Below are positions 2,804 to 60,165 of a stretch of 64,000 nucleotides of DNA, one piece after another (position 1 is the first letter of the stretch; every line of letters starts with the position of its first letter). A model generated the notes under the pieces. It had not been told where the DNA came from and did no database searches. It worked only from the letters and a program-made list of their open reading frames with translations. The stretch spans positions 1-64,000 of the IMG/VR virus record IMGVR_UViG_3300033058_000221. One strand, written 5' to 3'. The stretch is from a virus. Both the position numbers and the translations under genes were made by a program.

Positions 2804-2874
2804 GTCCCCTGAGAAGGATTTAACCGATTGCGATGGGACCTGAGTATATAGTAACCACAGAAAAGAAGGTATTT

Positions 2875-3081: not shown

Positions 3082-3084
3082 ATC

Positions 3085-3938: not shown

Positions 3939-3957
3939 ACACCACATCGTGTATAAT
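3928..3957 (+). promoter_or_regulatory. candidate promoter TTGATT-18 nt-TATAAT
   Basis: ttgatt (3928-3933) and tataat (3952-3957) preceded by tg. It overlaps the 3' arm of the terminator above, so only one of the two readings may be functional. Confidence 0.4.
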
Positions 3958-32724: not shown

Positions 32725-32797
32725 TGCAGGGTGGAGAAATTGGTATCTCACAAGGCTCATAACCTTGAGGTTGCTCGTTCAAGTCGAGTCCCTGCAA
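32725..32797 (+). tRNA. tRNA with anticodon CAT (elongator Met or Ile2/lysidine type; no encoded CCA)
   Basis: Hand-folded cloverleaf: acceptor tgcaggg/ccctgca, U8, D-stem gaga/tctc with loop aattggta (G18G19), anticodon stem caagg/ccttg with loop ctCATaa, variable aggtt, T-arm gctcg-ttcaagt-cgagt, discriminator A. Confidence 0.85.
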
Positions 32798-44017: not shown

Positions 44018-45109
44018 ATGGCATGGACAGATTATGCAGACGATGTAGGTATAGGGGCACTTAGTGGTGCTGCGACGGGTGCAGCGCTCGGATCTTTTGT
44101 TCCGATTATTGGAACTGGACTCGGCGCAGCTGCCGGCGGGCTTATTGGCGGTATCGGCGGTTGGTTCTCTGAACGTGACCGCAAGAAGAATGCGAACTCC
44201 GCTGAGAACTTAATCAAGCAGTTTGCCGCTGGGCATAAGGACCCGTTATCTCCGGCACTGCGAGCGCGTGCGCAACGGCTTGCTATGGGTGGTCAAGGGG
44301 TTGATCCGCAGATGCAACGGCTTGCGCGGGCATGGGCTGCCGGTGAAGGTGGTATCTCCTACGACACGAACCTTGCGAATCAGATGCTCCGCGGCGATAT
44401 ACCCCCGTCGATGGCAGCAGCGATGGATCGCAGGATTGGCAATCGGTTTGACACCTTACGTCGTCAACAAGGCGGTCAACTCGCACGGACGGGTGTACTC
44501 CGGTCGTCTGCTGGTGGTCGTCTGATGGCAGATACCTACGACTCTGAACGCAACGCCTTGACAGACACATACATGAACACGATGCTCCAAAGGCAGGGTC
44601 TCGGACTGAATATCCTTGGTGCTGCTAACGCAGATTTGCGAGCGCGTCAAATGATGGGTGCGTCTGAATTGGGACGGCAGGCAGACAGAGATATGGCGTA
44701 CCAGCGACTCGGCTTCTCAATGCTCACAGACCCAAGCACATTAAACAGAGACAGTATTGCGTTGAATGCTCGATTGGGCTTACTCGGTCAGCAACAGGTG
44801 CGTAGAGATGCAACATTGGAGTCTGCGGGAAATCTCCTTTCCGGTCTCTATACGAATTACCAAGACCAGCAACGCTTTGATAAACTGCTCTCACAGCAAA
44901 ATAACCAGTTCTCACAGTTGATGGGGCTTTCATCTGGTGGTGGCGGCGGAAAGATTTCTCCGATCATGGCAAAAGCGAACCTATCGGCAGTGCAGCTCGG
45001 GGGTGGCAACATTTTAGGCAGTCGCGATCCGTTCAAGTTGTTAAGCCAGCAACGGACAGGTGCTGGTGGCTACGGTGCCCGGAACACGCCCTTGACAAGC
45101 AGGTATTGA
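44018..45109 (+). CDS. Gly-zipper N-terminal TM protein, internal-virion/ejection-protein-like, 363 aa
   Basis: GIGALSGAATGAALGSFVPIIGTGLGAAAGGLIGGIGGWF followed by a Gln/Arg/Leu-rich helical body. Its position lies upstream of the giant ORF. Confidence 0.5.
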   Translation: MAWTDYADDVGIGALSGAATGAALGSFVPIIGTGLGAAAGGLIGGIGGWFSERDRKKNANSAENLIKQFAAGHKDPLSPALRARAQRLAMGGQGVDPQMQRLARAWAAGEGGISYDTNLANQMLRGDIPPSMAAAMDRRIGNRFDTLRRQQGGQLARTGVLRSSAGGRLMADTYDSERNALTDTYMNTMLQRQGLGLNILGAANADLRARQMMGASELGRQADRDMAYQRLGFSMLTDPSTLNRDSIALNARLGLLGQQQVRRDATLESAGNLLSGLYTNYQDQQRFDKLLSQQNNQFSQLMGLSSGGGGGKISPIMAKANLSAVQLGGGNILGSRDPFKLLSQQRTGAGGYGARNTPLTSRY

Positions 45110-45112
45110 TGT

Positions 45113-45640
45113 ATGAAACAAAAAGTGTTTGAGGAAAAAGTCAGGCTCATTCTTTTCTGTGTCGGAAAAGATCGGTTTCGGACACCGCTCGAAGCTGCGC
45201 AAGGTTACCTCGGCGCGGCAGAAGAGACTTTGAAACTCGCGAAACAACTGAAAGCCGCAAAACGTGCTGTCAAAGATGTTAAAAGGGACATCAAAGTAGT
45301 AAAGTTGATTATATCGGAATTGGAGCAGTCGGATGATCTCTTAGAGATCGAAAAACGGTTGTTGATAAAGCAGTGCTTCAGGTGCCATGTTTGCGAAAAG
45401 ACCTTTACAGAGTCAGATATGAAAGTCGGCATTATGCATGTTGGGAGAGCCGATACGGAGAGTCGGTACAACCTCTGTAATGCCTGCTATCAAAACCGTC
45501 ATAAGATAAGCGAGTTAGAGACTGTTTGTTTTACGTGTCTGCATTGCAGAAACGCACTCGAGCACTATGTTTTAGAAAAAACAGATGACGGATGGCAGTG
45601 CCGGAAACCTTACGGCTTCTGCTTCCAAGGAGGTGAATAA
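45113..45640 (+). CDS. coiled-coil + Cys-rich (3 x CxxC) zinc-finger-like protein, 175 aa
   Basis: CFRCHVCEKTF...CNACYQNRH...CFTCLHCRNALEH. Confidence 0.5.
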   Translation: MKQKVFEEKVRLILFCVGKDRFRTPLEAAQGYLGAAEETLKLAKQLKAAKRAVKDVKRDIKVVKLIISELEQSDDLLEIEKRLLIKQCFRCHVCEKTFTESDMKVGIMHVGRADTESRYNLCNACYQNRHKISELETVCFTCLHCRNALEHYVLEKTDDGWQCRKPYGFCFQGGE

Positions 45641-46866
45641 TGTTAGGGCTCTTACGCGGTATAGACCGTGGTGTACAAAGGGAAGGCGCGGCACAGCGCG
45701 ACTATTACGGCACTGTGCTAAGCTCTAAAGAGAACCACCTCGACCGGCTGTTAAATCAGATTAGATACAACCAGCAGAGAAAATACCAGCGTGACCGCGA
45801 TGCTCGTGCTGATTATGTGTCCGATAGAAGCCACCAATACCGCCAAGACCGCGCAGAGCGTCAAGACTTTGTGACGGATCGTGCGTATGACAGGAGTATA
45901 ATAGAATCCGACAGAAGCCATGCGCTCCGTCAAAACGCCGATAGACGTGCCGGTGAAGCACACGAATTTCTATACGATCCGGAGACAGGGTATCAGGTCA
46001 TGCAGCGTGATTATCTCGGCAAACAGATCGAGGAATGGGATCTGGGCGCACCGAATCGCGCGTTGCAGCGGAAGCACGATGCGGCGATCATGGCTTACGA
46101 CATGGGCGAAGGGCTGAACACCCGTCGCCAACGGGACGCGATGACCCGTGAGGAATACATGGAATACTTGAGAGACGCGCCGCTCCGCGACTTAGAAAGA
46201 CGACGGCTTCAGAAGTACACGGAATACGAAATCGGTGAAGGGTTTGACGAGTACCGCGAAGACAGAAGTCTCAAGCAAGACCTTATCCGTGCGCAGATCA
46301 ATAACCTCAACCGTCCGCGGTCAACTTCGTCGAGTGGTCCCAAACCCTTGTCACCGACGTGGGCACAGACCCGCGACATCACCGTTGAGTCGCTTGCACC
46401 CCAGATCGCTGACCATGTTATGCGATACGGGGATTCTGGGCACTGGAACCCCGGCATCCCTTTTGTAGGGGGCCCTACATTCAAAAAGGAACACCCTTGG
46501 TCGAGTACGAACCCGAACGATCTGAGTCAGACGAAGTTGCTCCGCCAAGCGGGTGCGAACCTGATGCGTGAATTGACAGAGCGTGGCGTGGACCCGTTAT
46601 CTGCGCAGCGGATGGTGCCGGACTATTTCGACCAAATCCTTGAATCACGGGGCGACCTCTGGAGTCGTCTGAAACGGACATCGCAAACCGAAGGCTACAC
46701 AGATGCGGAACTGCGCAGAGAGATTAGAGACATTGTCTATCAGGGTGCCTGGAATTATACAATGTTCCCGGAAGGCGATGGGGACGCGCGACCCGGCGGA
46801 CAACAGGGTTCTGATGCGGACGCAATTCTTGATAGACCTTTAGGCATTGGCAATATTACAAGGTGA
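45640..46866 (+). CDS. Arg/Asp/Gln-rich hypothetical protein, 408 aa
   Basis: ATAATG-type overlap with the previous gene. Degenerate repeats DR(S/A)H.YRQDR / DRAYDRS / DRSHALRQ. Confidence 0.5.
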   Translation: MLGLLRGIDRGVQREGAAQRDYYGTVLSSKENHLDRLLNQIRYNQQRKYQRDRDARADYVSDRSHQYRQDRAERQDFVTDRAYDRSIIESDRSHALRQNADRRAGEAHEFLYDPETGYQVMQRDYLGKQIEEWDLGAPNRALQRKHDAAIMAYDMGEGLNTRRQRDAMTREEYMEYLRDAPLRDLERRRLQKYTEYEIGEGFDEYREDRSLKQDLIRAQINNLNRPRSTSSSGPKPLSPTWAQTRDITVESLAPQIADHVMRYGDSGHWNPGIPFVGGPTFKKEHPWSSTNPNDLSQTKLLRQAGANLMRELTERGVDPLSAQRMVPDYFDQILESRGDLWSRLKRTSQTEGYTDAELRREIRDIVYQGAWNYTMFPEGDGDARPGGQQGSDADAILDRPLGIGNITR

Positions 46867-47153
46867 TGAAAACAATTGAATCACGGTTAGAGATCCAATT
46901 CTCACAAGACAGGAAAACTTGGCGCGAGGGGCTCGCCCAAGGTGGCGATCTGTTTTTCCGAACCCGTTCGGTTATTAGTGGTGTCCCCACCAGATGGAAA
47001 GCGTATTGCCTTCCGGCTTATTTTATAGGTGTTCCTATCCCGGTCGTATGGCACATGCTCAAAGATATGCCAGAGAAACCGATAACTGTTGAAGAATATG
47101 ACACGATGTGTGCAGTTGCCGATGCTATTGGTAAATTGGTAGAGGAGAGATAA
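46863..47153 (+). CDS. hypothetical protein, 96 aa
   Basis: GTGATG overlap with the previous stop. It ends immediately before the giant ORF start. Confidence 0.45.
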   Translation: MMKTIESRLEIQFSQDRKTWREGLAQGGDLFFRTRSVISGVPTRWKAYCLPAYFIGVPIPVVWHMLKDMPEKPITVEEYDTMCAVADAIGKLVEER

Positions 47154-50100
47154 ATGGCTACACTTAGAGAGTATCTCACCCCAGCAGAACAAGAACGGTT
47201 TCGCAAATTGCATGCCCAGGGCTACTTTGACCCGATCACGCTCAATCGGTTCACGCAGCGGATGCGTCAAGAGTTTGAATATATCGACATGCTCCAGCGG
47301 CAGTTAGATCGTGCGACATCCGACATCGGGCGCGTAAGGGGCTCAACAGCACAGGATGTCGAAACCCGTTCAAGGCTTCAATACACGATTGACTACACGA
47401 AAGATCGGATACCGAGGCTTCGTGCAGGTGCCTTTGATTCTGCGTTGTCTGGCGACTTAAGCGGTCGGACGCGTCGGGCGATCCAAGACTTTGAGCGTGC
47501 AACACATGTACGTGAAGACGGTCAGTTAACATCCGCTGGCGATGCGTTTGCGGCGATTCCGTGGATTGGGGACTCTGCCGAAAAGAACTTAATGGCACGG
47601 GATTTGGAGAACCAGATACGTGAGCAGGGTATTGTAGATTACACAATCAACCTCGCTGGAAGTATGATCACAAGTCCTATCCGCGGTGCACACCAACTCA
47701 CGACAGGCGGTTTGGGTGAGAACCCGCTTGAAGCGATCGCAGAGATCGGCTCTGTGCTTCCGATCGGACGTGCTTTTGGGCGGTTCGCGCGTCCTGGCAG
47801 TCTTACCTCAAAAGCCGTGAGAAGCCCGTTATGGACGGTGCCCTCCTACACCGCACAGGTTTCGGATATCGTCGGTGCCGGCGAAGGTGCTTATAGCGAA
47901 CTGTTGGCAGAAGGTGCGATAGAGGCGATCGGTAGCGGTAGGGATTTAGTCCGGCATATCAGACAGCGACGCGCCTTCCCGGGTGTAGACCCCCAGCAAG
48001 AGATAGAAAGCCGTCAAGCCACCGAATCCACCACTGAACACGACAGGACGACAGGTTCACGCACTGCACCGGGAACACAAGGGCTATCGCCTGAAACGGC
48101 GCGTGCCGTAGAGCGTGCGCGTGCCGATTCGGCAGTGGAATCTGCTGAAGCGCAAGCTGCGTTAGATGCTGCCAAAGAAGAGCGTCGGACATCCATGGAC
48201 CAAGAACTGCGCAGGGCTGCTTGGGAACGGATGCTCATCGAGGCGGAGGAACGCGAAGCCGCCGAGGCGGAGCAAGCTGCTCGCGAGCAACGGTTTATCG
48301 ACCAAGACGATGCGTACACAGCGCAACAGCAGGCGGAAGCAGAAGCTGCCGCGGAACAACAGACTGCCGAAGCAGACCGCATCGAACACACCAAGAACTG
48401 GTTGCCCTTCTATTCGGATATGGCAGGCGGTTCACAGTCGGAAGGCATCCGCTTACTCAACCAAGAATACGAGGCTGGGGTCCGTGACCCCATAGCACAC
48501 CGCTATGACCAGATCGCATCGGGGTTAAGGGAACAGATGGGTGCTGCGCCATCAGAACTACACCGTGAAGCAGATAAACGTCTGCGGCAGCAGATCGGCG
48601 AGAAGTGGTATAACATCCACCGCGGCATAGACCAGCGACCGACACCCCAGGAACGTGCAGCGCGTGCTGAAGAAGCTGCCGAAAAGATTGTGGAGGGCAC
48701 AGATGAAGGAACAGACGGAGATACCGATACCGGAACCACTGCTACAGGCACTCAACAAACGGATAGAGAGACACAACAGGGAAGTGGCGAGGCGCAACCC
48801 GACGAAACCGATGTCGATAATGTACCCGCAACGGATATTCCTGACCCACGTGACAGTGTACCACCATCCCGGATCGGAACTGAAAACAGAGGCTACGAAT
48901 CCGACGGCACCACCGGACACAACGTCCGACCCGTCCTCCGAGAGTTAGACGATCTCGTACCCTCGCACCAGTTAGACGGCGAGGCACGCGAAGACTACCC
49001 GCAAGACTTGCAACCGAGAGGAGGGCGTGGTGGTGCGATCTCGATGGAACAGGTACGCAACACCGCCCGGAATCCGAACTTCGCTTTCCTCTTAGAGTTT
49101 TTCAAACAGTTTCGCGACGGCGCACCCGTGACGAGTAAGAAACACCCCCGGCGCGTCGTATCTGGTAACGGTCGCACGTTGGCACTGCAATTCATGCAGC
49201 AGAACTACCCGGAGAACTGGGAGGCATACCAAGCCGCGCTCCGTGAGGAACTCGCACGTGTCGGGATCGACCCTGCGGAAGCGGATGCGATGGAAGCACC
49301 CGTACTGACGTATGAGTTGATGGACGACATTGACGAGGTAGCACTCGCGAAAGATGCCAACACACAGGCAACCCTGGACCACACCGCCGCTGAACAAGCC
49401 GGTCAAGATGCGCAATACTTCGATAACGATTTGATGGCGTTATGGGAACCGGGTGAAGGAAGTTTTGAAGAGGTCTTGAAAAGCGAAGGAAACCAAGCAT
49501 TCCGGACAGCACTTTTCAGGCGTATCCCGACGCAATTGGTATCGGCGTTTATGACGGCGGATAACCGAAACTTCTCCGACGACGGTATCAAACGGATTCA
49601 GAATGCAATGATCCGATACGTGTTCGGTGAAGACATCGGTGACCAGCTGGCAAACGTTTTGATTGAACAGGGGCTGGAAGATGTCAAGAATGTTGAGACG
49701 ATGCTCCGGCATGCGATCGCATCACTCGCTTATGCGAAAGCAAACGGGCAGGATATTTCTACGCAGTTAGCATCGGCTATTTTTAGGTTCATTGAATTCA
49801 ATAAAACCGCCGAACGCGAGGCACGCGAACGCAAGCAGCCCAAAGATGTGATGCTCTATGCCAGCATTGAGGCGTTCTATAAGTCCGGCACACTCATCGA
49901 CGCACCCACACTGCTTGAAAAACAGTTGCTTTATCTTGTCTATGCCAAGCGGAACGCGCCGCGGCAACTCGCAGACGATTTCCAAGTGTGGGCACAAAAC
50001 GTTGTCGCCAGGGGACAGGCAGATGCAGCGAGTCTCTTTGACACAGCGATTTCAGAGGCGATCTTCGCAGGGATGATACGCGACTATATCCGTGAGACGA

Positions 50101-53100
50101 TCCTTGAGACCCAACAAACACAAGACGGGCAGACGGTGCTGGTGCCACCTGAAAGCATGCCACCCGAACTCGTAAGCCTACGCAGAGAGATGGACAAGAT
50201 GTCGGGCACCGCGGATAAAGATCGGTTCGCGAACGACTGGATCGATGCATTCCTGCGGATGATGAACGAAGGGGAGGAACAAAGTGAAACACAAGTCGAA
50301 GCAGATGTCGGAGGCACAGATGCAGGAGCTACGGGAACACCACGAGGAACAGGCGAAGATACAGACGAAGGAGTACCTGATCCAGGACGTGATACCGGAG
50401 CTGCAGCAACACCCGAAAGTGAAGGAGGCGTGGCCCCAACACAGCCACAAGGAACTGACGGAGATGACACTGGAGCAGCTGAAGGAGCTGCGGACGATGT
50501 ACCAGTTGACGATCGAGGATCAGATTTAAGTGTTTCCCGCGATAGTTTATCAGCACTCTTTGGCGGTCGGGTATGGATTACTGATGCGATTGTAGACAGA
50601 ATTAATGATGTGCTTCAGCAAAAAGGTGACCAGACAGATCGCACGGATATCCGCACAGTCAAATGGGAAAACGACAATGGGGAACGCGTCGGGTTCAGCG
50701 ATGCACAAATCAATTTGCTGATGTATTCACTCGCAACGGGACAGACACCAAACCAGATGCCAGATGGGTTCAGTAGCCGGCTTTCCGGCAGCGCGCTTGA
50801 AACCATCGCAGACTTTAGGAGGATCGCAGATGAAACTGACACGGTGGATGCTGATCAAGATGTTTCTACAGAGGAAGGTGGGGTGGACGCAGCTAATGTT
50901 CCACCTACGGAAACGCCGGTCGACGCGAACCAAGTCGTCGGTGTCAGCCGTCGGATCGAAACATCCGAAACAACCGTCTCACCTGTCATAGCAAACGCCT
51001 TACAGATGCTCGGTGTTTCTGCGGAGGAATGGGAACGCCAGAAGGCAGAAGGTACTGCGGAAGAATTTTTGAACACGCTCCCGCAAGATGAAGATTATCA
51101 GATTGATGCGGTTATCGATCTCGCAGGCGATATTGCCGGTGAGATGGATTATGATGATATAGCAGATGAAGACCTCGATCTCGACGACGAAGATTTCTTT
51201 TCCGATGTTGATGACGGAATTCTTCGCGATATTACCGACCAGCAAAGATCCGATTTCGAGACTGTCCGCAAGAAGTTATTCCTCTCAAAAACGATCGCAC
51301 GGCTTGAAGCGAAGGGCACGGATCGGACACCTATTGAGACGGCACGGCTCCGGGCATTGCAAGCACCGCAACGCACCGACCAACAACAGAGTATCTATGA
51401 AGAGATGCTCACTGCGTTTATTGATCAGCGGGTGGCATACCTTCAATCGAAACCGCAACGCAACACAACAGAAAACCGTATCCTCGAAGCTCTGGTTGCG
51501 GTACAAGCAGACGGACTCCCCGAAGAAGCATCAGACCTCTCACTCTACTCGGATTTAGAGACACCCGACCAGGAACACAGCCGTCCGCTCGCGGAGACGC
51601 GCACCCTTGCCGGCGTACAAGCACCCGATACCGCGGACACAGAACTCGATCTCCCGGAAGATGTTACTGCGGATAAAAACAAACTCTCGCCTGCGCAACA
51701 AAGCAGTGTGAAAGCGATTATCGCAGCGTTCCTGCGGAAGATCCACACCGATACCGACACGACCGTTCAAGGCGGATTCCTGCTCGGCGACAAACCGGGT
51801 GTCGGCAAAACACGCCAGGCGTTGGCGGCCATGTGGCACTACATCCGTCAAGGGATCAACAAACACTTCGTCCTCGCCCCGAACCAACAGATTTTGGATA
51901 ACTACTCAAAAGATATGCAAGCGATGGGCGGTCCCGCATCGGACATCTCGCACTACGATTCGGGTAATAAGAAACTGAAAACCCCGATCGGCACGGCGAC
52001 CTATTCCATGATTACCCGGAAACCTGACTTGGTGAACTTCGCCACCGCAGGAGGTAGCCAGAACGCTATTGCCGACATCGTTGAACACTTGACAGGCACA
52101 CGCCCGACACTCCAACAGACGCACCCGGCGGCGTATCAGGCACTCCGTGAAGCGTATGCCCGGATATTCCCAAACCTCCAAGACGGCGCATCTGTGGCGG
52201 ACGTGGTGGCAGAACTTCAACGGCAGGCTGGCACGGTGAACCGCGAAAACGCCGCGCATGTTCAGAATTTCCGTCAACGCGTAACACCGATGCTTGCCGA
52301 TTTACTGTTGGCAGAGGATGGGCAACAAGAATTGATTGCCGCCGGTGCGGAAGGCTCAGAGCTCTATACGCGCGTCGAGCAGCTGTTGAATTTTGCAGAG
52401 ACACACTTCGCTGCGCAAACCGATCCCAATTTCCGTAGCACGACCGAAGCCTTTGAAGGTGTGATCGTCCTCGATGAGATGCATAAAACCGCAGGCACGA
52501 ACTCACAGATCGGGCAGACGATTGCGAAACTTCATGAGCTGCTCCCGAACGCGAAATTCTTGTATATGTCCGCGACACCGTTCAAAGAGATCGATAACTT
52601 CTGGGTCGCAGAACGGCTTGGGCTTTGGGGTGCGAACCAACCCTTCCCGAGCTTCGACCGCTTCCGTCGGACGTTCAGACGTGCCTCGCGCGCTGTGAAA
52701 GAAGTTATCCCGCTCCACTTAAAACAGATCGGACGCTACATCTCGCGTGCGCTCTCATCAAAAGAGACACGCTACACACCCGTGGAAGTGCCGCTCACCG
52801 ACACAGAGAAACGGCAATACGATACAGCCGTCCAACTCGTACAAGGTATCCGCCAACGGTTTGACGCAGCGATCGACGCAGCACTGCGCACGGCGTGGGG
52901 CAGTATCATCGAAAGCGAAGGGATGGACGGTCAATACCGCGCGAAATACATGCGGATGTACTACGGTGCGATGCAGGTGTTCTACCTCGCAGTCTTGGAT
53001 GCCATGAAAGCACAGGGGCTTGAAGCAGACATCAAAGAGAAGCTCCAAAACGGCGATAAGGTGATCGTCCAGTTGGAAAACACGTGGGAAAAGTCAATCG

Positions 53101-56100
53101 CACGTGCAAAAGAACGCAAGAAAGGCGGCACCATCGGTCCCTTTGACCTTTTGGTAGATTTCGTTGAAAACGAGAACACGTTCCCGATACATGAACACAC
53201 CACAGAGGTGCGCACCCGTTCCGACGGCTCGCATTACACAGTCGTTATACCGCGTATGAGATATGATGCCGAAGGGAATCAAGTACGGTCTGTCGATCCG
53301 AATCTCAAACGGCTACAGACACAACTCATCGCAGCACTCCGCCAAGAGATGCAACGCAGTGTATTTACCGCGGGGCTTCCGTTTGCCGCAGACATCATCC
53401 ATGAGATTGCAATATCTGCTGGGGTGGCGAGCGGCGAGATATCCGGACGGACAGAAACATTTTCACGGAATAACCCGCAACGGATGCCACAAGACCCCGC
53501 TTCCCGGATCGGACGCGCCAAAGCCTTCTCCGAGACCACCGATTTGAACCTGATCGTTTTGGGCCCCGCAGGGCTGACAGGTATCAACCTCCCCGTCTCT
53601 GAAGCCATCAAAGACAAGGTTGGCGGACTGTTCCACTACCTTGTGCAATCCTCGTGGAATGTGAATACCTTTGAACAGGGTTTAGGGCGTGGCAAGCGGT
53701 CTAACTCGGCGATCGATCCGCAGTACCAAGTCGTCTACCAGGATCTACCCGGTGCCGATCGTGTGTTGGGTGCAACACTCGCCAAGTTTGCTGAGATGGG
53801 TGCACTCGCGGGGCAAGCAGATAACGCCTTGATGCAGAACATCGACAAGGTAGAAGGTGAAACAAACCTCGACGATGACCCAGAGGCGGATGTCCCGGAT
53901 GTTTTCGATGAGACACAAGACACCGGCGAGCGGAGCCATGTGTTCGGCGTACACGGACAGGAAGCACTCGCACAACTCTGGCGCGATATGCATGAAGCCG
54001 GTGATATGGAGATCGCTGATACGCTCGGACTCGTACGCCCCGAACTCGCAGGCAACACAGGGCTGATCGACCCCGACACCATCCCAAGCGTGCAGCAGTT
54101 CTTCCAACGGCTCTTACACCAATCGACAACCGAGCAACCCCGTATTTATGAACAGTTTGAATCGCGTCTGAAACGGATTATCGCCTACAGGCGCGAGTTA
54201 GGTGAGTTGGATGTCGGGGCGAATGATCTCAACTCTAAAGATGGGCAGGTAACCGATAGGCTGACGATCTACACCGACCCGGATACCGGACAGACAGCAG
54301 AGATGGTGAAGTTAAGCGTGAAGCGGAAACTGCCGCGTCGGAGCTGGGAATTCGCACAGAAAGTTATCCGCGGTGAAGAAGGTTATGAACATCACGGTCG
54401 CAACTTCATCGGGATTTATCAAGATGCCGATGGTCACGTCTGGGCGGTCTTCGAAGCACCCTTTAGACAGGGCAGCGGAACGGAATACATCCGTTGGGGT
54501 CCCCGCGGTACACCCATTCAAGGTATCCATCAAGGCGAAAATCGGATAACTGCCGAAGAACTCGCAAACGATTTTACGCATATCTCCGTACCCAGCCAAC
54601 CCCAAATCACAGATGTAGACGCAGCGAAACAGCTCTGGGAGGCAGAAGATGCTGATGCCGATACTTATGTCGATTCAGAGCTCTTTATGGCGACAGGGCT
54701 TATCCTCCCGAAATGGAGCAATCTCTCGACACAGCGGATGCACGCACTGATGGCAGTCATCCCGATGTTAGACGGCTCAAACTTACACGGTCGAGTGATA
54801 CCGTCGGGACGCGTCTCGGAAGTATTGGAACAGATCGGCGGTGTCGATCCGAACCACTTTGATGCAGACAGAACAGAAACCACCACACCCGATACAGATA
54901 CAGAGACATCGCCAAATGGCGATGGGAACACCTTCGCCGAGATCGACATCCCCCAGTTTGTACGCGATATTATCGGGCAACAGACGGATACGCGCATCGC
55001 TGAGCGACTTGAAACCATCGTTGAAGCGATTCATAAGGGAATGCCGATGCTGTTGCGTGGACATCGTGTGAGAGACGCTGCCGAAGCTGCGCTCTTGGGG
55101 CAACTCATCCGTGACCCGCAAGTTGAACACACCTGGATCGTCTACAGGAAAGACGGTCGGATCGTCAAAATCGAGCCGATGAGTCTCAACAGGAAAACCG
55201 AAACGAAGGCAGGGGACTTTACACACATCAAAAGAACGGCTGCCAAAGAAAAAGCAGATTCCGTGTTGCGTATCCATAACCATCCGTCCGGGGTGGCGAA
55301 GTGGTCAGACACGGATAAACGCGTCGCGATGCAGTGGCACACGGAACTCGGCACACTCATGGCGGAAGATATTATCGTTGACTCCGGCACGTATGCTTAT
55401 CGGACTTTTGAAAACGGTGAATACACCTGGCACCAAGATGTCGTGTTAGATGCGACAGCTGCCGGTTTCGATACCAGCCCAGCGGCGGTCCCGGATGCGA
55501 CAGGTGAAGTCAAGCCGACCGATCCGCTCTATCAGAACCCGTTGATTAGGGGTGCGCGTGAAGCGGCGACCTACATGCTCGGACTCAAACACCGAACAGA
55601 CGTGGCAGAGTTGATTTTCGTTGATCCAAAGACAGGCAGGGTTACCGATACCGTTACAGATACACTGCTCCGAACTTCGCGTGTAGATGCCGAGATTGTC
55701 CAACGGCTGAAAGACTTGATCGCCCAAAGACCCGGACAACACGTGCATGTCGTGATGTGGGGTGGTAACCCTGCGTACACCACAGCGAAAGTGTTGATGA
55801 AAGCGAATATAGACGGCATGGATTCTGTCTGGGTGGATAGCACTCGTGGGCAAGGCATCGACTCGATTAGTACTTCCGATCAGGGAGACGCATCGGATAC
55901 CACAACAGACACTGACACTGAACCCGACACGATAACGATAAAGATAGGTGACGAAGATCACACGCTCATCCGGTCACCAGATGACGATACCGATACCGAC
56001 ACCGATACGCTTTCAGATGTTATCACGGATTTGATCACGGATTTGAAGAAGTGGTGGGACAGGCTCACTAAGAAAGAAAAAGCGGATATACGGAAGAAAC

Positions 56101-59100
56101 GGAAATTCACGAAGCCTGTTATAATTGCCGGTGTCCACAAACATGAACTATACCCAGACAAAGAGCGTAGGCTTCAAAACAGATATGATCGGGGTATTGA
56201 TGCCGAACACATGGTAAGAGGTGATGAAAAAGAGAACCTACGGTCAATCCTTGGATCCGGCACGCTCAAGAAAGCGGGTACTTATCCAGGTGTAGAAGGC
56301 TCCGGTCCCCGCGTATTTTTCTCCTACGGTCCTTACTACCGCAGAAACGAAAGCAGGCATGATTATGGCGTTATTTTAGACCTTGAGAAAATGCTGCGCG
56401 AGATACCGGGCATGTACGGGACGATTCACACCCGAAACAATTGGGGCACCCGCCGAGCGATTACTTCTGTCAAAGAGATGCGGAAACTCGTGAACTCCAA
56501 TCAGATCGGACACCCCGATACCGTCATTGAGATTAGTTTCCCACAAGATATTGACATCTCGAAATATTTTGTCGGTATCGTCGAAGATGGCAAGGTCTAT
56601 GCGAAAAAAGAGTATCTTGTTGAGAGCCAGTTGACCCGCGAACAAATACCCGCAGAATTTCCGACAACAAAATCCGAAAGCGAATTGAAGCAAGATATTC
56701 GGGCATACAAAGCGAAGATTAAAGAACTCATTGCTGAGATAAAACCGAGATTTGACCGTGCAATCCAAGAAGAAAAAGACAGGATACAACGTCTTGATAA
56801 AAGCATAGATAGGCGCGACATAGAAATTAATAAATTATACAGTAATCTTCATTTCAACAGGACCAAAACCCCCCATTCGGATAGAAGCCGTATCAAAACG
56901 CTCAAATCTATGCTTTCAAGAGAGATCGATCAGCGCAGAGATGCACAAAAACGACTTGAAGAACTTCGCAAGTGGGAAGGCACAATTTTCTTTGCCAAGC
57001 CCCATGCAGCTTATATACTCAAGGAAATACAGCAGGAATTGAAACAGGCATCACGCCAACTCAAAGAGAAGCAGAACCCAAGACGCAAGCGACAAGGTGT
57101 GTTGATGAGTGATGTTACCACCGATGGCGACAACATCCTCTCCGACTACACCGCGCAAGTCCAACGCACCAACCCCGATTCTGTTGTCTACCGTGTGCAT
57201 GCCCCAGAGGATTTAGCAATGACGGGTCGCGGACGTGCCAAATCCGCAGAAATAGGCGAAAAAGCACTCAACACGTTCCTGGATTCTAACGCCGGCATCA
57301 TGGGTGTCTTGAAAGCCTGGTCCCCGACTGCACGTCGATGGGCACGGCTAACGAAAAACGAATTCGTCTCCGGGTTCGGACGGCTTACAGATTTAGAAGC
57401 ACCCCAAGGAAGCGATGCACCGTCGCCTGCCGATGTCTTGAAAGAGATTCTCCGGGAACGGCAGATGATCTCTAAACTCAATGCTGGGCGTGCGTTATCA
57501 GCACTCGAACCGCCATTACTCGCGTTCAATAAACTTGCACGGAAACGCACAAGACTGCGCACAACCGCCGCAGCACCCGGCACACGCAAGGCAACGCGGA
57601 CAGCGATGTCACACAAAGTTTGGAACTTCATTGAGTATAACACCCCTATCGAAAATGATCCGGAACTGCTTGAAGCCGCAGAGAATTTGAAGGAGGCTTG
57701 GCGTGAGCTGCTGATCTACGACACCGAGAAGATCGTCGAACTCATGGGCGAATTGGAAACAATCAACGAGAAGCTCTACGTAACCGATTCCGCAGGCAAA
57801 CGCGTAGAATGGTACGGCGAATCCTTTGACGGTTTCGAGTGGGATCCTGAAACGAAAGGCTACACCAAAGACGGAAAGGCATACACCATCGAGGAAGCAC
57901 ACAGGGCAGCGAACAAACTCTATATGCCCCACTACTTCCGCGGTAAATCGCCACTACAGCAATACGCCGCACTCTCTAAGATGCAAGACGACTTGAACAA
58001 GTTGCTCGCCTCTGATGATCCCGCGGCACAAAAAGAGCTACTCCAACGCTTTGAAATCGAGATCGATCCCGGCGGCTTCCAGTACACGCACCTACCGACG
58101 GGCAAAACCGCTTCAACAGCGTATGAGATGGTACGCATCGTCGCCGACCACCTGTCCAACGAAGACGCAGCCCTACAGGGCATTATGAACTACTACCAAG
58201 ACGAAGGGCGTGTCGGCTACTACGGACACCTCGAAAGGACACGTGAAACAGACGACAGGTTCTATGCCCGGGATGTGGCACTACTCGCAGAAAACCGCAT
58301 CCGTTTATGGGACCGGCTCGCAGAAGTCGCAACGATCGGACAGCAACACCCGCTCATCGGGGATAGCCCGCGTATGAAAACGCTCATTGAACAGGTGATG
58401 ACTTTCGATAAGACACCCCGCGAAGCAGCACTTCGTAAATTTATTGATCCCTTGAAACCCGGAGATGAAGGGATGTTTGAACGGCTCCCACAATTCGCCT
58501 CCGGTGTCGATACGGCATTAGACATCATGCAGCACTGGTTGGAACGCGACGCAGACGGACAGAAAACCGGGAACTACCAAGAGATCGACATCGGACGGAT
58601 GAACCTCGACGACGCAACGCTCACAGAATTGGAACGGATCGGACTCATCGAGAAGGACGGAGACTCCTGGAAAGTCGTCGGTGAAGATATTGCGCAACGT
58701 CACGCAACGCTGGCACGGCATATCCACGAATTCTATAACACGCTCGCACAACGGAAAAACGCCGTGCATTCATTAGTGCTTGGGCTTGGCAATTGGCATA
58801 CCCGGGATCCGTTAGAGATGGAATCTTCGGAGTTTTGGAAGAAGATCAACGACGCGATCACTGTATTGACTTTGAATCACGGTGTCGCGATCCAGAACAT
58901 GTTAGAGATACCGCTGATTTCAATGATGACCGGTGCCAACCCGCTCTTTAAAGGGTTGAAGAACATGGCGAACAAGGAATATCGCGATGCTATGCAACAA
59001 CTCGCACGCGGCTTGAGCCATGCCCGCAAATTCATGGCAGATACATCGCTCGCCGATAAGTATCTCGGTTCGCCGTTGACGTTCTTCTCCAAATCGGATG

Positions 59101-59981
59101 AATTCTCAAGAGCTGCCGGCTTAGGGATCGGCTTAGAGAATGCGAAAGCGAAGATCCAACGCTACGCCGAAGCAGAAGGGAAACGCCGTGATGCGATCGG
59201 GCGTGAGATGGATGCCATCCGTCTGAACAAAGAGGTAATCGCGGGTATCCCAGTAGACCAGTTATCTGATGTTTTGACAGCCGCAGAGGAACTGATCCTC
59301 AACAACGAGGTGGACACCGTGTTCTCATCAGAGAAAGGCGGCGAACTCTCCGCTGCGGAACGACTCGCTGGTACAATGCTCCGCTCGATGTTCTATGTCT
59401 CCGATGAGACGTTCAAACAGTACGATGCGTCATCATTACCGGCGTTTATGGTCTCACGCAACCCGCTTATCCGGGTGTTCATGAAATACAAGTCTTGGAT
59501 GTTACAACAGAATAGATTGGTCTATAACCAACTCAAGCGCGCCTATCGCGAAGCGAAACAAGGCAACCCTGAACCGCTCGGCAACTTCATTGCGTCGTCG
59601 GCGATGATGGGACTCGGCACCGGGGGCTTATTGTGGCTCTATTCGGGCTTACAGGGTGATGACGACGATAAGACGGTCACAGAACGGCTCATGAAAGGGC
59701 TTGCCGCGGCACAGACATTCGGGATCGGGTCGGTGATGTTTGAACTGGCGATGTATGCCGAAGGGAACTGGTATCAGATGTCGAACCTCTTGGCGAAACA
59801 GGCTGCGGGTCCGACGTTCTCGGTCGCAGCACAGATGATCGGTCCGGTGTTCACAGGCGACTTCGGACAGGCGGGTGAGGAAGCACTCCGCAGATTACCG
59901 ATCGTTAGCTTCTCACGGCGTGTCGGTGGCTGGCGACTGCTTGAAGAAGCGACGGGCATAGGGGAGGACAATGAAGAATAA
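47154..59981 (+). CDS. giant (4275 aa) polyvalent protein: ParB-like domain, strawberry-notch-type SF2 helicase, RadC/JAB domain, plus large unassigned regions
   Basis: Single uninterrupted frame with a GGAGAG RBS. Motifs: DYPQDLQPRGGRGG (aa 619) and VVSGNGRTLAL (668); GDKPGVGKTRQ (1545), LDEMHK (1773), MSATPF (1805), NGDKVIVQLENTWEKS, QGLGRGKRSNS (2175); RIHNHPSGVAKWSDTDK (2708). All antisense and alternative-frame ORFs inside it are short. Confidence 0.85.
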   Translation: MATLREYLTPAEQERFRKLHAQGYFDPITLNRFTQRMRQEFEYIDMLQRQLDRATSDIGRVRGSTAQDVETRSRLQYTIDYTKDRIPRLRAGAFDSALSGDLSGRTRRAIQDFERATHVREDGQLTSAGDAFAAIPWIGDSAEKNLMARDLENQIREQGIVDYTINLAGSMITSPIRGAHQLTTGGLGENPLEAIAEIGSVLPIGRAFGRFARPGSLTSKAVRSPLWTVPSYTAQVSDIVGAGEGAYSELLAEGAIEAIGSGRDLVRHIRQRRAFPGVDPQQEIESRQATESTTEHDRTTGSRTAPGTQGLSPETARAVERARADSAVESAEAQAALDAAKEERRTSMDQELRRAAWERMLIEAEEREAAEAEQAAREQRFIDQDDAYTAQQQAEAEAAAEQQTAEADRIEHTKNWLPFYSDMAGGSQSEGIRLLNQEYEAGVRDPIAHRYDQIASGLREQMGAAPSELHREADKRLRQQIGEKWYNIHRGIDQRPTPQERAARAEEAAEKIVEGTDEGTDGDTDTGTTATGTQQTDRETQQGSGEAQPDETDVDNVPATDIPDPRDSVPPSRIGTENRGYESDGTTGHNVRPVLRELDDLVPSHQLDGEAREDYPQDLQPRGGRGGAISMEQVRNTARNPNFAFLLEFFKQFRDGAPVTSKKHPRRVVSGNGRTLALQFMQQNYPENWEAYQAALREELARVGIDPAEADAMEAPVLTYELMDDIDEVALAKDANTQATLDHTAAEQAGQDAQYFDNDLMALWEPGEGSFEEVLKSEGNQAFRTALFRRIPTQLVSAFMTADNRNFSDDGIKRIQNAMIRYVFGEDIGDQLANVLIEQGLEDVKNVETMLRHAIASLAYAKANGQDISTQLASAIFRFIEFNKTAEREARERKQPKDVMLYASIEAFYKSGTLIDAPTLLEKQLLYLVYAKRNAPRQLADDFQVWAQNVVARGQADAASLFDTAISEAIFAGMIRDYIRETILETQQTQDGQTVLVPPESMPPELVSLRREMDKMSGTADKDRFANDWIDAFLRMMNEGEEQSETQVEADVGGTDAGATGTPRGTGEDTDEGVPDPGRDTGAAATPESEGGVAPTQPQGTDGDDTGAAEGAADDVPVDDRGSDLSVSRDSLSALFGGRVWITDAIVDRINDVLQQKGDQTDRTDIRTVKWENDNGERVGFSDAQINLLMYSLATGQTPNQMPDGFSSRLSGSALETIADFRRIADETDTVDADQDVSTEEGGVDAANVPPTETPVDANQVVGVSRRIETSETTVSPVIANALQMLGVSAEEWERQKAEGTAEEFLNTLPQDEDYQIDAVIDLAGDIAGEMDYDDIADEDLDLDDEDFFSDVDDGILRDITDQQRSDFETVRKKLFLSKTIARLEAKGTDRTPIETARLRALQAPQRTDQQQSIYEEMLTAFIDQRVAYLQSKPQRNTTENRILEALVAVQADGLPEEASDLSLYSDLETPDQEHSRPLAETRTLAGVQAPDTADTELDLPEDVTADKNKLSPAQQSSVKAIIAAFLRKIHTDTDTTVQGGFLLGDKPGVGKTRQALAAMWHYIRQGINKHFVLAPNQQILDNYSKDMQAMGGPASDISHYDSGNKKLKTPIGTATYSMITRKPDLVNFATAGGSQNAIADIVEHLTGTRPTLQQTHPAAYQALREAYARIFPNLQDGASVADVVAELQRQAGTVNRENAAHVQNFRQRVTPMLADLLLAEDGQQELIAAGAEGSELYTRVEQLLNFAETHFAAQTDPNFRSTTEAFEGVIVLDEMHKTAGTNSQIGQTIAKLHELLPNAKFLYMSATPFKEIDNFWVAERLGLWGANQPFPSFDRFRRTFRRASRAVKEVIPLHLKQIGRYISRALSSKETRYTPVEVPLTDTEKRQYDTAVQLVQGIRQRFDAAIDAALRTAWGSIIESEGMDGQYRAKYMRMYYGAMQVFYLAVLDAMKAQGLEADIKEKLQNGDKVIVQLENTWEKSIARAKERKKGGTIGPFDLLVDFVENENTFPIHEHTTEVRTRSDGSHYTVVIPRMRYDAEGNQVRSVDPNLKRLQTQLIAALRQEMQRSVFTAGLPFAADIIHEIAISAGVASGEISGRTETFSRNNPQRMPQDPASRIGRAKAFSETTDLNLIVLGPAGLTGINLPVSEAIKDKVGGLFHYLVQSSWNVNTFEQGLGRGKRSNSAIDPQYQVVYQDLPGADRVLGATLAKFAEMGALAGQADNALMQNIDKVEGETNLDDDPEADVPDVFDETQDTGERSHVFGVHGQEALAQLWRDMHEAGDMEIADTLGLVRPELAGNTGLIDPDTIPSVQQFFQRLLHQSTTEQPRIYEQFESRLKRIIAYRRELGELDVGANDLNSKDGQVTDRLTIYTDPDTGQTAEMVKLSVKRKLPRRSWEFAQKVIRGEEGYEHHGRNFIGIYQDADGHVWAVFEAPFRQGSGTEYIRWGPRGTPIQGIHQGENRITAEELANDFTHISVPSQPQITDVDAAKQLWEAEDADADTYVDSELFMATGLILPKWSNLSTQRMHALMAVIPMLDGSNLHGRVIPSGRVSEVLEQIGGVDPNHFDADRTETTTPDTDTETSPNGDGNTFAEIDIPQFVRDIIGQQTDTRIAERLETIVEAIHKGMPMLLRGHRVRDAAEAALLGQLIRDPQVEHTWIVYRKDGRIVKIEPMSLNRKTETKAGDFTHIKRTAAKEKADSVLRIHNHPSGVAKWSDTDKRVAMQWHTELGTLMAEDIIVDSGTYAYRTFENGEYTWHQDVVLDATAAGFDTSPAAVPDATGEVKPTDPLYQNPLIRGAREAATYMLGLKHRTDVAELIFVDPKTGRVTDTVTDTLLRTSRVDAEIVQRLKDLIAQRPGQHVHVVMWGGNPAYTTAKVLMKANIDGMDSVWVDSTRGQGIDSISTSDQGDASDTTTDTDTEPDTITIKIGDEDHTLIRSPDDDTDTDTDTLSDVITDLITDLKKWWDRLTKKEKADIRKKRKFTKPVIIAGVHKHELYPDKERRLQNRYDRGIDAEHMVRGDEKENLRSILGSGTLKKAGTYPGVEGSGPRVFFSYGPYYRRNESRHDYGVILDLEKMLREIPGMYGTIHTRNNWGTRRAITSVKEMRKLVNSNQIGHPDTVIEISFPQDIDISKYFVGIVEDGKVYAKKEYLVESQLTREQIPAEFPTTKSESELKQDIRAYKAKIKELIAEIKPRFDRAIQEEKDRIQRLDKSIDRRDIEINKLYSNLHFNRTKTPHSDRSRIKTLKSMLSREIDQRRDAQKRLEELRKWEGTIFFAKPHAAYILKEIQQELKQASRQLKEKQNPRRKRQGVLMSDVTTDGDNILSDYTAQVQRTNPDSVVYRVHAPEDLAMTGRGRAKSAEIGEKALNTFLDSNAGIMGVLKAWSPTARRWARLTKNEFVSGFGRLTDLEAPQGSDAPSPADVLKEILRERQMISKLNAGRALSALEPPLLAFNKLARKRTRLRTTAAAPGTRKATRTAMSHKVWNFIEYNTPIENDPELLEAAENLKEAWRELLIYDTEKIVELMGELETINEKLYVTDSAGKRVEWYGESFDGFEWDPETKGYTKDGKAYTIEEAHRAANKLYMPHYFRGKSPLQQYAALSKMQDDLNKLLASDDPAAQKELLQRFEIEIDPGGFQYTHLPTGKTASTAYEMVRIVADHLSNEDAALQGIMNYYQDEGRVGYYGHLERTRETDDRFYARDVALLAENRIRLWDRLAEVATIGQQHPLIGDSPRMKTLIEQVMTFDKTPREAALRKFIDPLKPGDEGMFERLPQFASGVDTALDIMQHWLERDADGQKTGNYQEIDIGRMNLDDATLTELERIGLIEKDGDSWKVVGEDIAQRHATLARHIHEFYNTLAQRKNAVHSLVLGLGNWHTRDPLEMESSEFWKKINDAITVLTLNHGVAIQNMLEIPLISMMTGANPLFKGLKNMANKEYRDAMQQLARGLSHARKFMADTSLADKYLGSPLTFFSKSDEFSRAAGLGIGLENAKAKIQRYAEAEGKRRDAIGREMDAIRLNKEVIAGIPVDQLSDVLTAAEELILNNEVDTVFSSEKGGELSAAERLAGTMLRSMFYVSDETFKQYDASSLPAFMVSRNPLIRVFMKYKSWMLQQNRLVYNQLKRAYREAKQGNPEPLGNFIASSAMMGLGTGGLLWLYSGLQGDDDDKTVTERLMKGLAAAQTFGIGSVMFELAMYAEGNWYQMSNLLAKQAAGPTFSVAAQMIGPVFTGDFGQAGEEALRRLPIVSFSRRVGGWRLLEEATGIGEDNEE
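48924..49420 (+). other. ParB/Srx-fold nuclease-like domain within the giant ORF (boundaries approximate)
   Basis: VRPVLRELDDLVPSH...DYPQDLQPRGGRGG...GAPVTSKKHPRRVVSGNGRTLAL. The pattern matches ParB-like domains (xxQPRxR ... GNxRxxA). Confidence 0.6.
51684..53800 (+). other. SF2 helicase region, strawberry-notch (Sno)-like (boundaries approximate)
   Basis: Motif I GFLLGDKPGVGKTRQ, motif II VIVLDEMHKTAG, motif III LYMSATPF, the inter-lobe GDKVIVQLENTWEKS (compare the Sno GKxVVIGLQSTGEA), and motif VI FEQGLGRGKRSNSA. Confidence 0.7.
55041..55410 (+). other. RadC-like JAB/JAMM domain within the giant ORF (boundaries approximate)
   Basis: LRGHRVRDAAEAALLGQLI...EHTWIVYRKDGRIV...SVLRIHNHPSGVAKWSDTDKRVA. 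The same HNHPSG..S..D motif occurs in the stand-alone RadC at the left edge. Confidence 0.75.
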
Positions 59982-60165
59982 AAAACGACTCCTTTATTAT
60001 TTCTGGTCAATTCTTGTCACCTTTGCATTTGTATTCATTGTTACCGCGAAGGTATTGGGTATCTTTCCATGGAAACTCTACGACCTTATTGGTATCCCTT
60101 CTGCATTGTTTTTAGTCGTTATTTTACTTGCAAAATTCATCAACGACGATTATGAGGAGGAATAA
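59971..60165 (+). CDS. small 2-TM membrane protein, 64 aa
   Basis: GGGGAGG RBS inside the end of the giant ORF, overlapping its stop by 11 nt. Hydrophobic spans YYFWSILVTFAFVFIVTA and IPSALFLVVILLA. Confidence 0.5.
   Translation: MKNKKRLLYYFWSILVTFAFVFIVTAKVLGIFPWKLYDLIGIPSALFLVVILLAKFINDDYEEE

Follow-up and report, generated by a model that had tools for sequence, protein, structure and literature searches.

A 4275-residue cysteine-free polyvalent protein of a temperate phage: a candidate injected scaffold with exchangeable enzymatic cargo

The IMG/VR virus record IMGVR_UViG_3300033058_000221, of which positions 1 to 64,000 were analysed (this whole stretch is called the window in what follows), contains a single open reading frame (ORF) of 12.8 kb, and the question raised by this locus is what use a phage would have for one polypeptide of 4275 amino acids (aa). 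An original prediction, made from the sequence by eye, saw in this protein, here called the giant, a polyvalent fusion of ParB-like, strawberry-notch (Sno)-type helicase and RadC/JAB domains, and suspected that it is packaged in the virion and injected. We find that the enzymatic domains are present, that they lie between two conserved end modules across a family of related giants, and that the chain contains no cysteine, as is the case for every family member of at least 4000 aa. The reading we prefer, with a probability of about 0.6, is that the giant is a virion-packaged protein ejected together with the DNA, and that it acts as a delivery scaffold with exchangeable enzymatic cargo.

Gene integrity, domain content and family syntax

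The giant gene starts with an ATG that directly abuts the stop codon of an upstream 95-aa gene, and 5 nt before this start there is a strong Shine-Dalgarno sequence, GAGGAGAG. From there the frame is uninterrupted, as originally described, for 4275 codons; the longest ORF in any other frame of the span is 171 aa, and the probability of a stop-free run of this length arising by chance, given the local base composition, is P ~1e-82. The identical 4275-aa protein is found on several independently assembled contigs (Logan, ENA, NCBI and IMG), the longest of 70,250 bp, and an exhaustive HMMER scan of 1.84 billion representatives identified ten further intact homologues of 4,129-4,946 aa, such that the intact representatives of at least 4,000 aa number 11, with identities of 27-84%. 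The earlier concern that the frame might be an assembly chimera, or a false fusion of several genes by sequencing error, finds some support in the relatives L001 and L009, both from long-read assemblies of 5-6x coverage, in which the giant region is broken into 5-7 ORFs. However, these pieces keep the order of the giant and neighbouring alignments overlap across the frame changes, and for this reason we ascribe the breaks to indel errors at low coverage; with the exact protein recurring across pipelines, and with ten other intact giants, a chimera is extremely improbable and little remains of the concern. The giant has no notable internal tandem repeats, and a scan for promoters and terminators around the gene returned matches at the level expected from shuffled sequence.

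Domains were called from Pfam profile matches, with cut-offs of 27.6 bits for ddrB-ParB and 22.1 bits for RadC, and the three families that a profile search had been expected to return (ParBc, the AAA_34/Helicase_C_4 pair and RadC) were all found, close to where they had been read by eye (residues ~590-690, ~1510-2215 and ~2630-2750; Table 1). The ddrB-ParB match contains the motifs DLQPRGGRGG (residues 618-627) and VVSGNGRTLAL (668-678), and belongs to a DdrB-like unit of ~450 aa, in which residues 596-888 match PHROGs 5143 and 2299, and residues 601-950 match P1 DdrB (27% identity over 350 aa, E 4e-17, tblastn) as well as many P1-like phages. The Sno-type superfamily 2 (SF2) helicase passes the cut-offs for AAA_34 (PF13872, 148.9 bits, with ResIII, residues 1510-1618 and 1765-1891) and Helicase_C_4 (PF13871, 60.3 bits, residues 2119-2357), and its motifs are intact: Walker A GDKPGVGKTRQ (1545-1555), LDEMHK (1773-1778), SAT, and the arginine finger QGLGRGKRSNS (2175-2185). 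The RadC-type domain scores above its cut-off and also matches the RadC structure 2qlc in the PDB (0.0032); its JAMM motif HNHPSGVAKWSDTD (residues 2708-2721) is a complete H-x-H-x7-S-x2-D metal site. With ddrB-ParB, Sno helicase and RadC in one phage polypeptide, the giant is polyvalent as Iyer et al. (2017; PMC5512222) use the word, as had been proposed. Neither Pfam nor NCBIfam gave a match in the giant to a methyltransferase, RNA polymerase, peptidase, MuF or lysozyme domain, and no portal, MPTase or any catalogued LPD domain was found by Pfam.

We searched the same 1.84 billion representatives with the last 986 aa of the giant, which defined a family of 51 representatives; in all 51 the match runs to the C-terminus of the protein. 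The order of parts is conserved, with the aligned residues of the window protein in parentheses: an N-terminal module (N-module; 1-265), an optional DdrB-ParB, the Sno helicase (1473-2562), RadC (2603-2800), a small domain (3024-3165) and a C-terminal module (C-module; 3320-4265). Alignment to the window protein places the Sno helicase in 11 of the 11 giants of at least 4000 aa and RadC in at least 9 of 11 phage giants. Among eleven diverse relatives, Pfam finds the helicase in nine and RadC in four (in more by BLAST), the other cargo comprising methyltransferase (6/11), ddrB-ParB (3/11) and the winged helix DprA_WH (2/11). One relative, P0015 (4407 aa), has two copies of RadC in the same protein, at the equivalent of residues 2615-2748 and at 3042-3175.

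Cargo and ends differ in their closest relatives. In the cargo block (residues 566-2905) the giant shows ~60% identity to P0011 and P0015, compared with only 30-33% in the C-module; with P0003 the C-module identity is 82%, and with P0007 and P0008 it is 40%, where the helicases reach only 27-28%. Judged by these identities, the giant gene is a mosaic of recombining cargo between two end modules. The family is rare and internally consistent and falls within the already known class of polyvalent proteins; what has not been described before are its two end modules, one or more of its conserved domains and the platform as a whole. Local changes are seen as well in L001, the closest split relative: residues 2842-3029 are swapped there for a different, longer segment, a local cassette exchange, and an insertion of a HAD_PNKP-like gene and a 74-aa gene (L001, 207-668) separates the 95-aa gene from the giant.

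The genome that carries the giant is that of a phage, with genes for the large terminase subunit (TerL), portal and major head protein, and all long genes of the window lie on the plus strand. Past the window, the same contig encodes on the minus strand a ParB_N protein, a sigma-70 region-4-like regulator and a tyrosine recombinase. A family member, P0023, is found within a 5.9-Mb circular bacterial chromosome (L013; ENA ERZ25069580 ctg105762_10x_c), and we consider the clade to be temperate because of this integrated copy and the integrase gene; the P0023 prophage adjoins WD40, metallophosphatase and cadherin-repeat genes. Genomes of the clade measure 70-72 kb, so that the giant gene takes up ~18% of the genome, and relatives are syntenic. 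In a set of 50,697 phage records the portal had no tblastn match, TerL and the major capsid protein reached only 22-26% identity in scattered phages, and there was no match to the giant gene by megablast or to residues 1-585 and 2830-4275 by tblastn. By sequence comparison, then, this is a phage without a close cultured relative.

Cysteine suppression and the case for injection

The absence of cysteine from a protein of this size is unusual for its genome: the other 40 genes of the window have a mean of 0.96% Cys (P ~1e-18), and ~98 Cys codons would be expected in the giant from its base composition (T 0.189 x G 0.271 x (C+T) 0.45 per codon). The suppression is family-wide, with 0 Cys in the 50,116 residues of the 11 representatives of at least 4000 aa, and 8 Cys in total in the 84,476 residues of the 26 representatives of at least 1200 aa. 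It extends to two proteins encoded upstream, of 363 and 408 aa, and to the homologue of the latter in a distant relative, all with 0 Cys. The same count of zero holds for the N4 virion RNA polymerase (vRNAP) gp50 (3500 aa) and for N4 gp51 and gp52 (644 and 150 aa), for T7 gp15 and gp16 (747 and 1318 aa), for Bcep22 gp75 (4602 aa), gp74 (532 aa) and gp70 (331 aa), and for KPP25 ORF088 (2009 aa); polymerases, terminases and portals of the same phages have usual numbers of Cys, for example 12 in the N4 DNA polymerase and 5 and 6 in the T7 and KPP25 terminases. P1 DarB (2255 aa) has 9 Cys and P1 DdrB has 2.

Cys suppression has been noted as a conserved feature of the ejection operon of Schitoviridae in a study of phage DEV, which cites an earlier proposal that ascribes it to passage through the periplasm (PMC11445570). 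By analogy, the absence of Cys suggests that the giant and its two neighbours exit the virion through the envelope, and is the strongest single argument for this, being a correlate only. It would also lend support to Cys suppression as a sequence-only predictor of ejected proteins beyond the Schitoviridae.

The composition bears likewise on the possibility that the giant is not packaged, and is instead made after infection as an intracellular complex for replication, recombination or counter-defence, with its odd composition a by-product of the acidic linkers. The recognisable domains all act on nucleic acids or nucleotides, and 33 kb, with non-structural genes in between, separates the gene from the head genes upstream; both points fit such a role. 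However, a complete lack of Cys here and in the homologues, set against the number of codons expected, speaks against it, and cytoplasmic or myovirus counterparts such as P1 DarB do contain Cys. A purely enzymatic role would also leave unexplained the terminal C-module and the swapping of cargo between fixed ends, and gp69 of phage JC1, the analogue in size and position, is virion-associated. We consider a giant that stays out of the virion improbable.

Towards the end of the C-module are three conserved, moderately hydrophobic Gly/Ala-rich segments (residues 4144-4166, 4182-4202 and 4219-4235) with Kyte-Doolittle 19-residue means of 1.2-1.25, similar to the 1.32-1.44 of the late segments of T7 gp16; the claim that the protein ends in hydrophobic helices holds to the extent of these three segments, none of which (highest 1.25) attains the classical transmembrane score. 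AlphaFold2 (AF2), given 22 family sequences, produced a mostly helical model with moderate confidence (pLDDT 68, pTM 0.45). The C-module has no Pfam model, its profile has no match to PDB sequences, and Foldseek gave no match among PDB structures (best E 0.6). In the BFVD database of predicted viral structures, the Foldseek matches of the model were the C-terminal parts of proteins from uncultured phages annotated as "large polyvalent protein associated domain" (E 8e-6, prob 1.0), KPP25 ORF088, annotated as structural (E 8e-5, prob 1.0), and, more weakly, entries named "internal virion protein D" (E 4e-3 and 0.4). Consistent with the KPP25 match, hhalign aligned the family profile with ORF088 end to end over the last 300 residues (Prob 69%, E 4.6e-5); T7 gp14, gp15 and gp16 and N4 gp50, gp51 and gp52, including the C-terminal domain of the vRNAP, all gave Prob <3%.

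Several further searches with the C-module were made. LPD38 and other catalogued LPD domains were ruled out, with no match even at E up to 1. Back-translated peptides found no C-module in IMG/VR, and a degenerate C-module motif found 36 loci in 185,579 genomes (Desulfovibrio, Streptococcus and others), none of them a relative by tblastn. Apparent stand-alone C-module genes (P0026 and others) were rejected, as the sequence comes from a 5x long-read contig with helicase and RadC fragments upstream in shifted frames.

A long helical module with hydrophobic Gly-rich segments near its end resembles tape-measure proteins, and the giant might on this account be a structural tail component, be it a tape-measure-like, needle or plug protein, that has acquired enzyme domains. 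A few tape-measure entries do appear far down the Foldseek list (E 0.5-0.7); these matches are not significant, however, and the chain consists mostly of globular enzymes and acidic linkers of 30-90 aa. Sheath, tube and chaperone genes were not recognised beside the giant, and family members ranging from 2550 to 4946 aa within syntenic genomes are unfit as a length ruler. A tail component is therefore very unlikely.

The reading that the giant is packaged and ejected with the DNA is supported indirectly: by the Cys suppression, which its whole family has in common with ejection-type or structural proteins of N4, T7, Bcep22 and KPP25; by the homology of residues 601-950 to DdrB of the P1 Dar system; by the conserved Cys-free genes upstream; by the resemblance of the C-module to the C-terminus of KPP25 ORF088 and to other phage polyvalent proteins; and by the finding of JC1 gp69, the positional and size analogue, in virions (PMC9144972). 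From this we infer packaging, ejection, roles for the end modules and an anti-defence function. In such a scheme the N-module and the C-module would be needed for incorporation into the capsid and for passage through the tail and the envelope, and would act together with the Cys-free glycine-zipper protein of 363 aa and the charged protein of 408 aa. An arrangement of folded domains and acidic linkers as beads on a string would allow the 477-kDa chain to thread a narrow channel unfolded, and a chain without Cys would escape trapping by disulfides in the oxidising periplasm. On reaching the cytoplasm, the cargo would work in cis on the incoming genome, or target host factors, within the first minutes of infection, in a counter-defence role like that of DarB and the Dar system; it consists of a DdrB-type ParB/Srx domain, a Sno-type SF2 double-stranded DNA translocase, a RadC/JAB metalloenzyme and possibly a DarT-like ADP-ribosyltransferase.

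A number of observations count against this scheme. The presence of the giant in virions is suggested by indirect indicators, Cys suppression and analogues, and the N4 major capsid protein, which is not ejected, has 0 Cys as well. The end modules have no homology to characterised ejection proteins detectable by hhalign or by Foldseek against the PDB, and the Foldseek matches of the C-module have TM-scores of 0.2-0.26, with a model that is itself moderately confident. Neither a classical transmembrane helix nor a lytic transglycosylase domain was found in the giant, unlike in T7 gp16 and Bcep22 gp75. Between the head genes and the giant there is a 10-kb stretch with endonuclease, endolysin-like and sugar-modifying genes. 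Finally, an anti-defence role would follow entirely from families, DdrB-ParB and RadC, whose biochemical roles are unsettled. The "ejectosome fusion" of the original prediction is thereby reduced to an analogy: the end modules show no detectable homology to T7 gp14-16 or N4 gp50-52, and there is no classical transmembrane segment.

Since the Sno helicase, with intact ATPase motifs, is found in every giant of at least 4000 aa and is the largest conserved enzymatic block, the core function could also be that of a genome-internalisation motor, in which a membrane-anchored translocase pulls the phage DNA into the cell with host ATP, the other domains being accessory, similar to the N4 virion RNA polymerase or to T7 gp16 with RNA polymerase. 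Cys suppression and conserved end modules would suit an envelope-anchored ejected protein, and the giant ejected enzymes of N4 and DEV can double as a "genome ejection motor" (PMC11445570, PMC13434306). Against this, the helicase is missing from P0022 (2550 aa) and P0023 (3073 aa), two intact members of the family that have the N- and C-modules, ParB and RadC, and no helicase fragment was called beside their genes; the translocase is thus dispensable for the core function of the family. No membrane-spanning helix is predicted in the giant either, and we regard a motor as an unlikely primary function.

Delivery scaffold and motor could be combined in a broader proposal, which we offer as a doubtful one: the family may be a modular protein-injection platform of deep-branching, temperate, largely marine phages, its end modules being packaging and translocation signals for swappable cargo, and in the helicase-bearing lineages a membrane-tethered Sno translocase may serve as an ATP-driven motor for genome entry. 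The cassettes seen so far would be methylase, ParB, helicase, RadC, DprA-WH and the DarT-like ADP-ribosyltransferase, and a Sno motor, if real, would be a third solution to genome entry after the RNA-polymerase-driven (T7, N4) and pressure-driven ones. Of phage entry and early counter-defence, giant injected proteins are the part about which least is understood, and only a handful of them (N4 vRNAP, T7 gp16, P1 Dar and Bcep22 gp75) have an experimental footing. In the family described here, "delivery" and "payload" sequence can be told apart by comparative genomics alone; the end modules are candidate packaging and ejection signals that may serve to load foreign cargo into capsids, and the cargo catalogue may indicate what phages deliver first, including RadC and possibly a DNA ADP-ribosyltransferase.

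Remaining regions, neighbouring genes and genome surroundings

More than half of the giant had been left unassigned (residues 1-590, ~700-1500 and ~2830-4275) and was thought to be the place where undescribed activities would hide. Analysis divides these parts into conserved end modules that would form a scaffold, acidic linkers, a coiled coil, the DdrB-like extension and one small candidate enzyme domain. The linkers (residues 489-569, 1037-1127, 2559-2602 and 2894-2938) are long, acidic, poor in hydrophobic residues and rich in Thr, Asp, Glu and Gly, and lie between the folded domains.

The N-module has no match in Pfam, PHROG or PDB. Its hhalign probabilities were at most 2.6% against each of T7 gp14, gp15 and gp16, N4 gp50, gp51 and gp52, P1 DarA, DarB and DdrB, Bcep22 gp67, gp70, gp74 and gp75, and KPP25 ORF001 and ORF088. 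In a Tara contig, residues 1-514 (the N-module plus residues 286-514) form a separate gene of 589 aa, which is preceded by homologues of the 175-aa and 408-aa upstream genes. No family match was obtained for the small domain at residues 409-520, which is better conserved than any other piece of the N-terminal third. The orphan region (residues 1131-1470) takes the position at which the most distant relatives have an N6-adenine-type methyltransferase; a degenerate methyltransferase was ruled out there by reading the sequence against the methyltransferase consensus of those relatives.

The candidate enzyme domain, at residues 2975-3165, is conserved in six relatives, whose copies are split by a helical insert of 100-350 aa. 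An AF2 model of it (pLDDT 73, pTM 0.69) has DarT as five of its six best PDB matches in Foldseek, all weak (E 0.016-0.07, TM 0.34-0.40), the best of them with E 0.016 and prob 0.98. Searches with its profile against PDB sequences and against a large protein index, and of Pfam with all seven members, were empty. We tentatively predict a DarT-like ADP-ribosyltransferase (ART) fold, as a lead only, with the invariant H3019, Y and E3126 as candidates for the NAD-binding, aromatic and catalytic residues. The structure prediction and Foldseek comparison that had been suggested for the unassigned parts has yielded weak DarT-like and KPP25-like matches, and leaves the C-module without a match in the PDB.

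Table 1. Features of the giant, its upstream genes and other loci of the window (positions in the window; residues of the giant)
Feature	Position	Residues	Strand	Remarks
Giant gene	47154..59981		+	ATG start, 4275 codons, 477 kDa, pI 5.0, net charge ~-172, 0 Cys
N-module	47154..48008	1-285	+	At the N-terminus of most family giants
Small conserved domain	48378..48713	409-520	+	55-57% identity in relatives otherwise at 23-30% (P0013, P0020)
ddrB-ParB PF18763		588-718	+	57.9 bits, 1.4e-15 (Pfam)
DdrB-like block	48906..50258	585-1035	+	ddrB-ParB and extension homologous to P1 DdrB residues ~52-394
Orphan region	50544..51563	1131-1470	+	Small segments between acidic linkers
Sno-type SF2 helicase/translocase	51570..54839	1473-2562	+	AAA_34 and Helicase_C_4
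RadC-type JAB domain	54960..55643		+	PF04002 at residues 2648-2730, 26.4 bits, 6.8e-6
Conserved alpha/beta domain	56076..56648	2975-3165	+	Invariant DAEH, YYRR, YGxxLD, IE, GVIED; candidate ART
Lys/Arg/Glu-rich coiled-coil linker	56649..57110	3166-3319	+	Read directly from the sequence
C-module	57111..59978	3320-4275	+	~950 aa, mostly alpha-helical, three hydrophobic Gly/Ala-rich segments near end
363-aa protein	44018..45109		+	0 Cys, N-terminal glycine-zipper hydrophobic segment, Kyte-Doolittle 1.58
175-aa protein	45113..45640		+	11 Cys, CxxC pairs, zinc-finger-like; weak Baculo_IE-1 match
408-aa protein	45640..46866		+	0 Cys, highly charged, Arg/Asp/Gln/Tyr-rich
95-aa protein	46866..47153		+	Also upstream of the giant in L001
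TerL	7121-8803		+	
Portal	9842-11974		+	
Major head protein	12920-13897		+	
Endonuclease-like gene	27590-28183		+	PHROG 452
Endolysin or "internal virion lysozyme motif"-like gene	29657-30241		+	PHROGs 7, 2083
tRNA-Met (CAT)	32725-32797		+	Single
FkbM-family methyltransferase and GT25-like glycosyltransferase	36323-37763		+	Just upstream of the late block
64-aa ORF	59971-60165		+	Overlaps last 11 nt of the giant gene

The glycine-zipper, Cys-rich and Arg/Asp-rich proteins noted earlier between 44018 and 47153 are present as the genes of 363, 175 and 408 aa. The 363-aa protein, which has a partial homologue ahead of the giant in L008, is a candidate membrane-inserting ejection protein. The 408-aa protein has syntenic homologues just upstream of the N-module gene or giant gene in L003 and L008, and one precedes the giant even in a relative at only 27-40% identity; it is a candidate ejection protein of the periplasmic-tunnel type. 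The 175-aa gene is conserved near the giant in relatives, in L001 downstream of it instead. Its product is probably not ejected; it may bind zinc and remain in the cell as an assembly or chaperone factor.

Downstream, the 64-aa ORF that overlaps the end of the giant gene encodes a very hydrophobic protein, apparently with two transmembrane segments, which could be holin-like or another membrane protein. The giant gene region (48000-60000) has a GC content of 0.53-0.555, compared with 0.42-0.51 in most of the window, and its coding strand shows a strong excess of A over T (AT skew 0.14-0.25; T 18.9%). The endonuclease-like and the lysozyme-like genes lie between the head and tail genes and the giant block, and the lysozyme-like protein could supply, in trans, the peptidoglycan cutting that the giant lacks. 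The tRNA gene is placed between two late gene blocks. In the relative L008 (1-1648), the place of the FkbM and GT25 genes is taken by those for a sulfotransferase and a GT1 glycosyltransferase, and the genes at this position may be phage-borne glycan modifiers, perhaps for lysogenic conversion, that vary among relatives.

Comparison with known systems

Giant virion-associated DarB-like proteins and the Cys criterion are already in the literature. Like other members of the polyvalent class, the giant brings disparate enzymatic domains together in one polypeptide of a mobile element, with domain shuffling among relatives. Iyer et al. (2017) describe DdrB-ParB as a hub domain and the Sno-type ATPase as occurring "in a few instances", and their census has DdrB-ParB only in phage-type proteins and RadC only in those of conjugative elements (PMC5512222). 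Unlike in that census, RadC and DdrB-ParB coexist in the phage protein of the window, and RadC is common across the family; the invariant N- and C-modules were not described there.

P1 DarB had been named as the experimental paradigm, and the giant does not belong with it on either of the domains that define DarB: it has no methyltransferase and its Sno-type helicase is unmatched to DarB. DarB, moreover, is not Cys-free. In a tblastn search of residues 583-2830 against the 50,697 phage records (E 1e-5), ddrB-like genes were matched and darB was not. What the giant has in common with the Dar system is the homology of its residues 601-950 to DdrB, a presumed role in protecting incoming DNA and, in its most distant relatives, the pairing of methyltransferase and helicase that is also seen in DarB. 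The Dar components (DarB, DdrB, DarA, Hdf, DdrA and Ulx), however, are separate proteins of a myovirus, with Cys in DarB and DdrB, and no homologue of DarA or Hdf was seen in the window phage.

In the N4 vRNAP, an ejected enzyme of giant size, the domains are loosely joined and those at the ends bear no relation to the catalytic core (PMC13434306); the window giant is like it in both respects and in being Cys-free. Both are encoded beside two smaller Cys-free proteins, of 150 and 644 aa in N4 and of 363 and 408 aa in the window. Unlike gp50, to which neither sequence nor profile comparison revealed any similarity, the giant lacks an RNA polymerase domain, its cargo being helicase, ParB and RadC; the window phage also differs from N4 in being temperate, with an integrase and one integrated family copy.

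ORF088 of the Pseudomonas podophage KPP25 (AB910393), a "structural protein", is likewise Cys-free and the last gene of a structural block. Its C-terminal 300-1000 aa resemble the C-module in end-to-end register, with a shared GN-x-x-P motif. This similarity is remote (18% identity) and confined to the C-terminal part, and ORF088 is half the size of the giant and has no Pfam enzyme domain.

The closest known analogues are the "DarB-like" proteins of the Lessievirus podophages, Bcep22 gp75 and JC1 gp69, encoded by ORFs of 4500-4600 aa that make up ~20% of genomes of 61-64 kb. JC1 gp69 (4515 aa, 22% of the genome) is the last gene of the morphogenesis block and was found by mass spectrometry, with 51 unique peptides, in CsCl-purified virions (PMC9144972). 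No match to Bcep22 gp75 was obtained by blastp, and hhalign of the C-module gave Prob 3%. The domains of gp75 are SLT, an Eco57I-type methylase, an SNF2/ResIII helicase, LPD3 and LPD38, whereas the giant gave no SLT or LPD match, even at E up to 1. The likeness is thus one of architecture and setting: both giants end a plus-strand late block after medium-sized, Cys-free virion proteins, in phages with a recombinase on the opposite strand; both have 0 Cys and combine a DNA enzyme (in gp75 the methylase) with an SF2 helicase; both have moderately hydrophobic segments a few hundred residues from the C-terminus; and LPD38 occupies in gp75 a place equivalent to that of the C-module.

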